Shown piece by piece: positions 15,063 through 38,268 of a stretch of 52,949 bases of DNA. The stretch lies in sequence record PX651718.1, one strand, 5' to 3'. Position numbers and translations under genes: made by a program. Each line of letters begins with the position of its first letter. Position 1 is the stretch's first letter. A model generated the notes under the pieces. The model had not been told where the DNA came from and searched no databases. It saw only the letters and a program-made list of their open reading frames with translations. This DNA is from a phage.

Positions 15063-16095
15063 CGACGAAGATACCGTGAATGAAGTAGTTTTGTTGAACG
15101 ACAAGGCTACTTTGACGACCCGTCGTTTACGTGACTCTGGCGAAATGATTGCAGAATGCACCATCGCTCGTACTGGCATCATGCTGTACAAAGCAAAAGA
15201 GCTTGGTGAAATCGCAAAACATCTGGACCCAGAATCTATTTGCCGTGTTCGTACCAAGCCGGAAGTATTATTTGATGAAGCAACCATTGAAGGTTGTCGC
15301 TCAATTCCGGTTACTATCGGCCATCCGAAAAATGATGTTAACATCAAGAACAACAAAGAACTCCAGAAAGGGTTCATCGAAGGGCGTCCAGTTGCAGACG
15401 GCTCTTTCTTGGCTGCATCAATCGTTTTGAATGACGAGCAAGCTATTCGATTAGTTGATTCTGGTGTTGACCAAATCTCCTTGGGCCATAATGCTGAACT
15501 GGCTGTATCAGAAGATGATGAAGCCGACTTCGATAAAGTTCGCATTATCCCTAACCATGCTGCAATTGTTGTTCGTGGTCGTGCTCAGACTACCCGCATT
15601 GGTGACTCTGGTGAAGAGATTGCCATTGTTGATAAGGCAACCTTTGATGTTGTTGAAGCAGAGCGTGATGCAGCGCTTGACAAGATTAGTGCCCTTGAAC
15701 AGAAACTTGCTGATGCGGAAACTGCACGACTATCCGATGAAGCTATTCAGGCTGAGGTAGACAAACGTGTAGTTGCTCGTACAGCATTGCTTGTTGATGT
15801 GGCCCGTCTTGGCGACGAGTTCTCCAACCTCGATTTCTCCGGCAAGACCGATGCAGAAATTAAGTTGGCTGTAGTTAATAAATTGCATGACAAGGATTTC
15901 AGCGATAAGAGCGAAGACTATATCTCCGCCCGTTTCGATGCAGCTCTTGAAGATTGCGATTCCATTACTTTGGGAGATGCCCTGAATCAGTCTATGCAAT
16001 TCTCTGCTAAGAAAGATTCAGAAGCTCGTAAACCTAAAGTTTCTATTTCCGAAGAAGCTAACAAACGTCGTTTAGAACGCTTCAACTCTTTATAA
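15031..16095 (+). CDS. capsid scaffolding / prohead core protein (putative)
   Basis: Coiled-coil-like C-terminal region; sits between portal and capsid genes; GTG at 15031 with AAAAGGG upstream (track ORF begins earlier, at 14857). Confidence 0.45.
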   Translation: MKQNQNLVQLNDEDTVNEVVLLNDKATLTTRRLRDSGEMIAECTIARTGIMLYKAKELGEIAKHLDPESICRVRTKPEVLFDEATIEGCRSIPVTIGHPKNDVNIKNNKELQKGFIEGRPVADGSFLAASIVLNDEQAIRLVDSGVDQISLGHNAELAVSEDDEADFDKVRIIPNHAAIVVRGRAQTTRIGDSGEEIAIVDKATFDVVEAERDAALDKISALEQKLADAETARLSDEAIQAEVDKRVVARTALLVDVARLGDEFSNLDFSGKTDAEIKLAVVNKLHDKDFSDKSEDYISARFDAALEDCDSITLGDALNQSMQFSAKKDSEARKPKVSISEEANKRRLERFNSL

Positions 16096-36084: not shown

Positions 36085-36639
36085 ATGTTATCATTCAAAG
36101 TCCTTGCACTTCTGGCAGCTTTAGTTCACATCAACGCCCCAGCTTCGGTTGGGGCAGTGAATTCTGCTATTACAGATTTTGCAAGTCACTCTTATTTAAA
36201 TGGAAGTCTGAAACTATCTTCTTCACAACGCAAAGAGCTAGAATGCTATACTAAAGTTATCTGGTATGAAGCTCGCGGAGAAGACAAACATGGAAAGATT
36301 CTGGTAGCTAATGTCGTCCGTAATAGAACTAAGTTCGGGAAGCCATTCGCTAACACCGTTTGTGATGTTGTCTATCAACGCAATCAATTTGCATGGACAC
36401 GAGAAGCAAAGAAGAAGAATGCTCAATGGAAGCATGTAGCAAAGATTAATTATGCCACAGAACAACAACAAGTTCTGGACACTATTAATGTTGCAATCTC
36501 TTTTGTACTATTTAATCAACCCTCTGTCACCAAAGCAACCCACTTTTGTACAGCATCGGAGAAGTGCAACTTCAAGAATGTTAAAGGCTTGGGACGTTAT
36601 GGTGGCCATAAATTCTATGAGTATCTAGGAAATCTGTAA
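36085..36639 (+). CDS. cell wall hydrolase (SleB / Hydrolase_2-like) with N-terminal signal or SAR sequence; candidate endolysin
   Basis: N-terminus [24 protein letters not shown]; core [12 protein letters not shown] ... NVVRNR ... [14 protein letters not shown] typical of the SleB family; RBS AAGGA. Confidence 0.75.
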
Positions 36640-37739
36640 TGGCTTACACTACCTTTTCACAAACCAAGAATAACCAACTACTAGAGCCAATGTTCTTTGG
36701 TCAGAACGTTAACGTTGCCCGATATGACCAACAGAAGTACAGCATCTTCGAGAAGTTAATCGAGAAGCAGTTATCTTTCTTTTGGCGACCTGAGGAGGTT
36801 GATGTTAGCCAGGACCGAATTGACTATGCTGGTCTGCCTGAATGCGAGAAGCACATCTTCACCAGCAATTTACGATACCAAATCCTGCTCGATTCCATTC
36901 AGGGGCGTGGACCAACCACAGTTTTGCTGCCAATTGTGAGCATTCCTGAGCTGGAAACTTGGATTGAAACTTGGTCATTCTCAGAGACAATCCACTCTCG
37001 TTCTTACACGCACATTATTCGTAATATCGTGACAGACCCAAGTGTAATTTTCGATGAAATTGTGGAAAATGAGCACATTAAAATGCGTGCAATTGGCATC
37101 TCCCAATATTATGACGAGCTTCAACATCTGACTTCCATGTGGCATTTGCATGAAGATAAAGTTTCTCTTCGTGAGCTTAAGAAGAAGCTGTATTTATGCC
37201 TCATGTCCATTAATGCACTGGAAGCAATTCGCTTTTATGTCAGTTTTGCTTGCTCATTTGCCTTCGCTGAACGCAAGTTAATGGAAGGAAATGCCAAGAT
37301 TATTCGCTTAATTGCTCGTGATGAAGCACTCCATTTGACCGGAACTCAACACATGCTGAACCTTCTTGCAAGCGGTGTTGATGACCCAGAAATGGCAGAA
37401 ATTGCTAAAGAATGCCGTCAAGAATGTCAAGAAATGTTCGAAAATGTGGCCCAACAAGAGAAAGATTGGGCTGATTATTTGTTCAAAGATGGCTCAATGA
37501 TTGGCTTAAATAAGCAAATTCTGTGCGGATATGTGGAATATATCACGAATATTCGTATGCAAGCAGTTGGATTGGATGCTCCATTCAAAGGTGCTACTAA
37601 CCCGATTCCTTGGATTAGCTCATGGTTGAATTCGGATGCCGTACAAGTTGCTCCACAGGAAACGGAGATTAGTTCGTACCTTGTTGGGCAGATTGACTCC
37701 GAAGTTGACACCAATGCTCTGGGCGGATTTGAGCTTTAA
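36639..37739 (+). CDS. nrdB: ribonucleotide reductase class Ia small subunit (NrdB)
   Basis: By recall very similar to E. coli NrdB ([11 protein letters not shown] ..., [21 protein letters not shown]); iron ligands and tyrosyl radical residue conserved ([10 protein letters not shown]). Confidence 0.9.
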
Positions 37740-37750
37740 CGATTATATGC

Positions 37751-37788
37751 GAGAAGAGATTCGATGCGTTAGCGTCGTTTCTCTTTGA
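37751..37788 (+). terminator. rho-independent terminator
   Basis: Hairpin CGATGCG-TTA-GCGTCG followed by TTTCTCTTT directly after the nrdB stop. Confidence 0.5.
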
Positions 37789-37828
37789 GCTAGAATAAAA
37801 CAAGTAAATTAAATATTTATTTATTCCC

Positions 37829-37845
37829 AATATTGCTACAATATT
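37829..37845 (+). promoter_or_regulatory. perfect 17-bp palindrome AATATTG-CTA-CAATATT (candidate operator or promoter element)
   Basis: Exact inverted repeat; related copies at 38025, 40374 and 41075. Confidence 0.4.
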
Positions 37846-37884
37846 AAGAGTAATATTAGGAATGCGTAAAGTTAAAACCAAATG

Positions 37885-37947
37885 GTACATGGTCGGTCAA
37901 CTGTACCTGGACATAGATTCGTTCACGGTCGGTCAGCTGTATCTCGC
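37885..37947 (+). repeat. two direct repeats GTACATGGTCGGTCAACTGTACCTGG / CGGTCGGTCAGCTGTATCTCG
   Basis: Near-identical 20-26 nt units about 40 nt apart; a third copy at 41129. Confidence 0.5.
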
Positions 37948-38024
37948 CAAAATTTGTTCGAATGGAAGACCGACTATTAAATAATTTTTTTTTTATAATT
38001 TTTTTTTTAATTTAAATATTGCTA

Positions 38025-38041
38025 CAGAATTAATGAGACTA
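38025..38041 (+). promoter_or_regulatory. imperfect copy of the AATATTG palindrome (AATATTGCTACAGAATT) in an A/T-tract region
   Basis: Flanked by long poly-T/poly-A tracts (37975-38000, 38081-38100). Confidence 0.3.
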
Positions 38042-38268
38042 GAATTCGTAACAAAGCTACGAGACTCAAATTGCGGCAATATTATAATTTTTTATTTTTT
38101 GGGCCAGCGGGGAGGGGAAGCCCAACGTCCTATCGGACTTAAATACGGTCCCTACTCCAACTTTTTCCTACAGCCTATCGGCTTAATGATAACACCAAGT
38201 TAGGCGCTTCGCTTATGAGTCAAGGTCAAAGTCTTCGTGCTGTTGTAACAGTGGCACAGGTTTGTGAT

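Follow-up and report, generated by a model that had tools for sequence, protein, structure and literature searches.

How a phage could profit from one subunit of ribonucleotide reductase (RNR) without the other is the question raised by the nrdB gene of the phage genome deposited as PX651718.1. The window analyzed here, namely the whole deposited stretch of 52,949 nucleotides, carries on its plus strand (36639..37739) an intact open reading frame (ORF) of 366 aa, which was assigned to NrdB, the beta (R2) subunit of class Ia RNR, and it carries no gene for the large alpha subunit, NrdA. The reading that we favor, at a probability of roughly 0.7, is that the phage encodes a working beta2 that would pair with the NrdA of its host, E. 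coli, forming a functional hybrid that raises or sustains the production of deoxyribonucleoside diphosphates (dNDPs).

Assignment of the phage gene to class Ia NrdB

The phage NrdB was matched by PF00268 with an E value of 3.8e-49 (168 bits vs 33.6) and, over its full length, by NF006576, the NCBIfam equivalog model of the class Ia beta subunit, with 698 bits against a cut-off of 346. The top matches among solved structures were R2 chains of E. coli (E ~1e-199). Two other identities were considered and rejected, namely class Ib NrdF, for which TIGR04171 scored only 100 bits vs a cut-off of 355, and R2-like ligand-binding oxidase (R2lox), for which NF006198 scored 26 bits vs 274. In a BLASTP comparison with the NrdB sequence taken from an annotated E. 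coli chromosome, 299/376 positions were identical (80%) with one 10-residue gap, in good agreement with the closeness to E. coli NrdB stated in an earlier note on this DNA.

That note had also stated that the iron ligands and the radical tyrosine are retained, and the alignment bore this out. All six ligands (D84, E115, H118, E204, E238, and H241) were identical in the phage protein, as was Y122, the codon of which lies at 37005..37007 on the plus strand, and the same seven residues were identical in every aligned member of the phage clade. In addition, the residues of radical transfer or gating, W48, E52, E350, and Y356, were all kept. Judged by these model thresholds together with the cofactor residues, the phage gene is a class Ia NrdB of the E. 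coli type. It shares with E. coli NrdB (PDB IDs: 1RIB and 1MXR; 6W4X for the active complex) the cofactor ligands, Y122, the residues of proton-coupled electron transfer, and the alpha-binding tail, and it differs in lying outside an nrdA-nrdB-yfaE operon and in having a phage-like codon composition.

Absence of a large subunit from the complete genome

The genome that hosts this nrdB was identified as that of a Carltongylesvirus (Chaseviridae) myophage of the ST32/phiEcoM-GJ1 type. Since the window corresponds to a complete ST32-type genome in exact circular permutation, its end running to ST32 position 15949 and its start taking up at 15950, no sequence is missing from it, and the earlier note's proviso of an nrdA gene located in missed sequence could be set aside. 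Within the window, a tblastn search with E. coli NrdA gave a best E value of 1.2, and no RNR large-subunit family was present among the 25 listed of the 60 Pfam families obtained from a scan of all 84 plus-strand ORFs, among which 25 a genuine large subunit would rank. The ORFs of at least 500 aa were assigned either by Pfam (primase-helicase, DNA polymerase, and RNA polymerase) or through the ST32 annotation (terminase and tape-measure/virion protein).

Meanwhile, no yfaE-like ferredoxin was detected by tblastn in the window. Remnants of nrdA or yfaE beside nrdB were also considered and rejected, as tblastn revealed none and the downstream flank was homologous to the intergenic region of sister phages. 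Based on the lack of any NrdA or YfaE match, the assignment of all long ORFs, and the completeness of the genome, the phage beta gene is genuinely alone, without alpha, as had been proposed from the letters of the window.

Conservation of the NrdA-contacting surface

To compare the subunit interface, a contact set of 29 beta residues was used, comprising the direct alpha contacts in the 2.6-Å cryo-electron microscopy (cryo-EM) structure of the active E. coli alpha2beta2 complex (Tables S9 and S10 of PMC11551348) plus I297, which fills a cone-domain pocket induced by deoxy-ATP (dATP) in the inactive alpha4beta4 ring (PMC11447812). The phage and E. coli proteins were identical at 26/29 of these positions. 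The changes N131T and D368N fell within cellular variation, and N343A was the sole unique one. I297 was unchanged; so were N300 and E220, two residues that touch the cone domain when alpha2beta2 is in its active form (PMC11551348).

In E. coli, the beta tail inserts into NrdA and carries Y356 (PMC11551348). The corresponding tail of the phage protein (equivalent to E. coli D342-L375) is encoded at 37635..37736 on the plus strand, and it retained the anchors L370, F373, and L375; its last eight residues read NALGGFEL vs DDLSNFQL in E. coli. The segment L339-Y356, which threads into the alpha active-site pocket and in which the V353 backbone helps hold the Y356 water network, was invariant in the cellular sequences (LVSDNVQVAPQEVEVSSY) but differed across the phage clade, with V340N, N343A, V351T, and V353I as clade-wide substitutions at cellular-invariant positions; the first of these (37629-37631, plus strand) lies just upstream of the tail proper. 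Altogether, 15 clade-wide changes affected columns that do not vary among the 36 cellular sequences, and they could be either neutral drift with host constraints relaxed or tuning of the hybrid. The pairing with host NrdA proposed in the earlier note appears plausible and is the most economical reading of the 26 contacts and the tail anchors.

Deletion of a surface beta-hairpin

The 10-residue gap in the phage NrdB was revealed to take out a beta-hairpin of the host protein (E. coli residues about 173-182), which accounts for the host surface-loop insertion already noticed as absent. In AlphaFold2 (AF2) models, the hairpin of a host-type homologue comprised strands 174-178 and 181-185, flanked by a long helix on either side, and that of the phage NrdB was replaced by a six-residue loop, HEDKVS, at residues 171-176, encoded at 37149..37166 on the plus strand. 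These models, built from a shallow alignment, had a mean predicted local distance difference test (pLDDT) score of 55 and 62 with local values of 81-90 near the hairpin, and they were used solely for the local secondary structure around it.

The hairpin length was constant across the 36 cellular sequences. Three Carltongylesvirus subtypes lacked 10, 7, or 4 residues of it, with NrdB lengths of 366 aa in the window and ST32, 369 aa in FXie-2024a, and 372 aa in GJ1 and the Yersinia phages, and Serratia phage PCH45 had independently lost 8 residues. The full hairpin was present in Survivor, another phage with a lone nrdB, and in the NrdB of Ea35-70. In the tables of the active complex, the hairpin is absent from the listed alpha contacts (PMC11551348). 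The idea that losing the hairpin frees the enzyme from inhibition through dATP-induced alpha4beta4 rings found no support, and it survives only as an unlikely alternative, given that the ring contact is I297 (PMC11447812), which is unchanged together with N300 and E220.

Selection on the phage gene and its origin

With its 22 nearest relatives among deposited phage records, the nrdB DNA shared 95-97.5% identity, and nearly all of the listed records that carry annotation include the gene in it. All 46 of the 46 Carltongylesvirus-type records carried it intact, with at least 89.5% amino-acid identity. Within this clade, the synonymous divergence (dS) reached 0.7-0.8, and the ratio of nonsynonymous to synonymous divergence (dN/dS) was 0.03-0.08, below the values of the neighboring holin and endolysin genes. 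The phage nrdB is under strong purifying selection; the low dN/dS at high dS therefore indicates that the protein, including the residues needed for catalysis only, has been maintained by selection.

The recent capture from an enterobacterial host suggested in the earlier note did not withstand comparison, and a recent capture from E. coli was ruled out by nucleotide identity, dS, codon composition, and phylogeny. Against 5,426 complete E. coli genomes, the DNA identity was 69-70.5% in the sampled rows, with all matches in the 60-80% band, and synonymous sites were saturated between the phage and E. coli genes. The GC content at third codon positions (GC3) was 0.43, like that of other phage genes, vs 0.63 for E. 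coli nrdB. At the protein level, the phage NrdB was 81.7% identical to those of Escherichia and Klebsiella and 77-79% identical to those of other Enterobacterales and Pasteurellaceae, whereas E. coli and Pasteurellaceae NrdB, at ~85% identity, are closer to each other than the phage protein is to that of E. coli. In neighbor-joining (NJ) bootstrap analysis, the method on which the deep placement rests, the phage clade was placed outside the common ancestor of the Enterobacterales and Pasteurellaceae sequences (36 in all); this held in 142/150 replicates when Kimura distances were used and in 134/150 when gamma distances were used (89-95%).

A grouping with phage two-subunit systems, which the earlier note had named as the outcome that would speak against it, was not found for the T4-like proteins (53-55% identity); the phage clade did not join any cellular lineage either. 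Its distance to the T4-like outgroups was no greater than that of the cellular proteins, and 6 of the 15 clade-specific changes matched T4-like states. The sites diagnostic for Enterobacterales vs Pasteurellaceae carried the Enterobacterales state in 10 cases, the Pasteurellaceae state in 5, and other states in 8, a mixed signal that leans weakly toward Enterobacterales.

Among the best 80 of at least 600 matches in a collection of 185,579 species, no cellular genome exceeded 80% identity, the best being Escherichia and Klebsiella at 80%, and a protein search of 5.8 billion sequences yielded no NrdB between 78% and 90% identity. In IMG/VR, one near-identical contig was found, with the next best match at or below 66%. 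Either the donor is unsampled or nrdB diverged substantially after its capture, and in both cases the transfer is older than the diversification of the genus.

One candidate intermediate, P0004, a 494-aa NCBI "NrdB" that scored between the groups, was rejected as an adapter-contaminated chimera of a cellular NrdB containing the repeated ...VSYTHLDVYKRQ...; its interruptions, ...PVSYTHLDVYKRQ..., correspond to translated Nextera transposase adapter and are an assembly artefact. Separately, PP952070.1, deposited as Staphylococcus phage Pel53 with Staphylococcus hyicus as the stated host, was seen to be a 53.7-kb Carltongylesvirus-type genome, with NrdB 90% and RNA polymerase 93% identical to those of the window phage, and the stated host looks doubtful. 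Partial nrdB similarity was also observed in 203 E. coli plasmid records, for instance NZ_CP133922.1 with ~74% nucleotide identity over 29% of the query. These matches, which SSU5-like phages and phage-plasmids carrying nrdA may explain, form a mobile pool of class Ia RNR genes of their own in E. coli.

Lone small subunits in other viruses

As an annotation and a table entry, a lone nrdB is already known, and it is genus-wide in GenBank. The equivalent genes of the closest relatives, phiEcoM-GJ1 gp75 and ST32 ORF79, occupy the same position after the endolysin gene, with 91-99% amino-acid identity, and differ from the window NrdB only in the residual length of the hairpin. Dwivedi et al. (2013) counted two phages as nrdB-only, tabulated phiEcoM-GJ1 as such in Table S1, and described the function of incomplete RNR sets as unknown (PMC3653736), and the ST32 paper lists nrdB without comment (PMC6266442). 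No discussion of a mechanism for a lone phage nrdB was found in the literature searched.

Two unrelated jumbo phages were found to resemble the window phage in having a host-type NrdB, 79-80% identical to that of E. coli, without NrdA; they are separate acquisitions, 74-79% identical to the window protein. In PCH45 (Serratia; NC_091964.1, 212.8 kb), nrdB lies at 124783-125889, its product shares 80% identity with the E. coli protein, and tblastn at E values up to 1 detected no NrdA in the whole 212.8 kb. In Survivor (Pantoea; PP885733.1, 271.6 kb), likewise with no NrdA detected in the whole 271.6 kb, nrdB (200502-201635) directly precedes a gene for a yfaE-like 2Fe-2S ferredoxin (200251-200502) that is 64% identical to E. 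coli YfaE, and this locus looks like the 3' part of a host nrdAB-yfaE operon without alpha. Of the circumstantial evidence that it is the radical-bearing subunit which phages need, the pairing of beta with ferredoxin in Survivor is the strongest. A further host-like nrdB was found in Ea35-70 (Erwinia, Agricanvirus; NC_023557.1, 71263-72396), 69% identical to the window protein by tblastn; no nrdA is adjacent to it, a statement on this locus that leaves room for a distant alpha. Privateervirus carries host-like nrdA and nrdB together.

T4-type phages also use a phage class Ia beta for the supply of deoxyribonucleoside triphosphates (dNTPs), but they encode both nrdA and nrdB. Their NrdB, which is 51-55% identical to the window protein and is not known to work with any alpha but its own, has a tail of the type ...SYKKYF and differs from the window NrdB at many contact sites, including Q30, E220, I297, Y307, and N343.

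Most chordopoxviruses encode R2 only and use the R1 of the host, and the vaccinia F4 (R2) forms functional hybrids with host R1 via its C-terminus (PMC2900304). The poxviruses, like the window phage, thus have a host-like small subunit without a large one, whereas their hosts are eukaryotic and both the hybrid and its fitness role are experimental, the phage hybrid being predicted from interface conservation. Mammalian R2 is the limiting subunit and is degraded in the cell cycle. The lone subunit itself was confirmed; in view of the 2013 table, the poxviruses, and at least two other phage lineages, the earlier note overstated how unusual it is.

Insertion of nrdB behind the lysis genes

The gene directly upstream of nrdB encodes a SleB-type endolysin (36085..36639, plus strand; PF07486). 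The ATG of nrdB overlaps the TAA stop of the endolysin gene as TAATG (36637-36641), and a ribosome binding site, AGGAAA (36627-36632), is positioned six bases upstream (36627..36641 in all, plus strand). For ST32 ORF79, the identical Shine-Dalgarno sequence and ATG are listed (PMC6266442). In the sister genera, the endolysin stop is followed directly by an intergenic/terminal-repeat region without nrdB. The order in Faunusvirus, Sabourvirus, and Loessnervirus (Faunus, 4HA13, and Berlingot) is tail fibers, holin, endolysin, intergenic region, and RNA polymerase. The homology between the window and these sisters ends near the end of the endolysin gene and resumes at ~37819, bracketing with clean boundaries an insert of 1.15 kb that consists of nrdB and a terminator-like GC hairpin with a T-run (37762..37787, plus strand) placed directly after the gene, at the end of the inserted segment. 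Phage nrdB is, therefore, a horizontally acquired moron-type insertion specific to this lineage. In the promoter and terminator scans, counts in the region did not exceed those in shuffled sequence, and the hairpin is only suggestive.

The relative PYps23T has direct terminal repeats of 2.3 kb (PMC8762354), and the intergenic region after nrdB probably belongs to the terminal-repeat and early-promoter region, which leaves nrdB as the final gene of the unique sequence on the right. Its overlap with the endolysin stop implies that nrdB would be co-transcribed with the lysis genes, and the two are probably coupled in translation as well. A promoter-like motif, ACATTAGTTGGATGTGAA, was found in 8 copies with at most 3 mismatches, where chance predicts 0.1; every copy is plus-stranded and falls within the early/middle region, at 38267, 40408, 41284, 44745, 49275, 49415, 49603, and 51570. 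These copies are probably promoters of the phage single-subunit RNA polymerase, and 0/8 lay near nrdB or in the structural/lysis region. The gene looks like the end of a late/lysis transcription unit, from which its expression timing is deduced.

Two repeats were observed in the AT-rich region between nrdB and the RNA polymerase gene, parts of which are conserved in the sister genera. AATATTGCTACA occurs twice, 186 bp apart, within 37810-38033, and GGTCGGTCA(A/G)CTGTA occurs twice, 36 bp apart, within 37885-37945. This repeat-bearing region is probably the early promoter region for host RNA polymerase and the terminal-repeat boundary.

Proposed role of the phage NrdB

Because beta is useless without alpha and the phage has none, the partner of the phage NrdB should be host NrdA. 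In the proposed mechanism, the protein would be made after infection from the late lysis-gene end of the genome, and the phage beta2 would assemble its own diferric-tyrosyl radical cofactor. Its C-terminal tail would then dock into the host alpha2, and the resulting hybrid of host alpha and phage beta would raise or sustain the conversion of NDP to dNDP for phage DNA synthesis, acting alongside the phage dUTPase and, in relatives with an intact gene, ThyX. Beyond sequence conservation, we infer that the cofactor assembles, that the protein binds host NrdA and is active, that the phage gains from it, and when in infection the gene is expressed.

Several points weigh against this hybrid. N343A loses a side-chain hydrogen bond to alpha V642 (contacts from PMC11551348), and with four substitutions in a tail segment that is invariant in the 36 cellular sequences, the affinity for host alpha could differ. 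A rationale equivalent to that of the mammalian enzyme, with beta and not alpha as the limiting subunit of RNR during infection of E. coli, is not established. Assembly of the class Ia cofactor requires O2, and the gene would be useless in a strictly anaerobic gut. The extreme late-end, endolysin-coupled position is odd for a gene of replication supply and weighs slightly. Finally, no biochemical or genetic test of the phage NrdB or its relatives was found in the literature searched.

Of the other explanations, the one that survives best, though unlikely, assumes the same hybrid and places its advantage in altered regulation, such that the phage beta outcompetes host beta for NrdA or escapes a host control, be it dATP-driven alpha4beta4 inactivation, YfaE-dependent maintenance, or turnover. 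The threefold erosion of the hairpin in the phage clade and its independent shortening in PCH45, against a constant length in 36 cellular sequences, would fit such an advantage, as would the four clade-wide substitutions in the otherwise invariant tail segment and the 15 changes at cellular-invariant columns. However, I297, N300, and E220 are unchanged and the hairpin is not a listed alpha contact; Survivor and Ea35-70 keep the full hairpin, and its loss elsewhere may be neutral decay of a dispensable surface element. A wider generalization, which we advance tentatively and consider rather doubtful, is that capture of beta only, sometimes together with a YfaE ferredoxin, is a recurrent adaptive strategy of Enterobacterales phages, whose betas would be tuned (no hairpin; V340N, N343A, V351T, and V353I) to outcompete host beta or evade host control. 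If true, beta or its radical, not alpha, would limit dNTP supply in infected cells.

It is distinctly improbable that the phage NrdB is a non-catalytic binder, either an NrdA-binding decoy or dominant-negative directed against host dNTP synthesis, or a protein with a moonlighting role. Other viruses have turned single RNR subunits to new uses, as exemplified by the catalytically inactive R1 homologues of betaherpesviruses, and a replication gene is not usually found among the late genes. A decoy would need none of the iron ligands, Y122, W48, E52, E350, or Y356, all of which are kept at dN/dS 0.03-0.08, and because residues that serve only catalysis have been retained at dN/dS of at most 0.08, such a role is disfavored. 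The phage dUTPase and the intact ThyX of relatives point instead to a dNTP-supply module, and in Survivor nrdB is paired with a radical-maintenance ferredoxin.

Very improbable as well is a dispensable passenger, that is, a moron without present benefit or the remnant of an nrdA-nrdB(-yfaE) cassette after the loss of alpha. The genome end tolerates insertions, sister genera manage without nrdB, and genes of nucleotide metabolism can decay, as the thyX of the window with its two nonsense codons illustrates; against this stand an nrdB intact in 46/46 related records at dS ~0.75 and dN/dS of at most 0.08, clean insertion boundaries, and the absence by tblastn of any nrdA or yfaE trace in the window including the flanks of the gene. 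A pairing with another large subunit, either a highly divergent phage alpha or host class Ib NrdE, is exceedingly improbable, as it has nothing positive in its favor beyond the formal possibility of a divergent partner that escapes sequence searches, while no long ORF is left unassigned, no large-subunit family is among the listed Pfam matches, the tail is of the NrdB/NrdA type, and the NrdF model falls far below its cut-off (100 bits vs 355).

Should the hybrid of host alpha and phage beta prove real, bacterial viruses would have their first counterpart of the poxvirus R2-only strategy, and the small subunit or its radical would be the bottleneck of DNA-precursor supply in infected E. coli. 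The class Ia RNR of E. coli is the reference system for long-range radical transfer, and the phage NrdBs are natural, selection-tested variants of its beta, bearing the hairpin deletion and four tail changes. The hypothesis is directly testable in this best-studied RNR system, and the pattern recurs in phages. For annotation, the gene is routine and already correctly labeled.

A thyX frame with two stop codons

The thyX (Thy1) gene of the window, at 1847-2497, is 99% identical to that of ST32, with two Trp codons turned into stops, TGG to TGA at codon 165 (2339-2341) and TGG to TAG at codon 174 (2366-2368), by which the frame is cut at 164/216 aa. It is the sole gene of the window with mid-gene stops relative to ST32. 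The stretch containing the stops was identical in 0/27 related records, with a best identity of 98.5%. The gene may be a pseudogene, the two stops may be suppressible, or the sequence may be in error at these codons.

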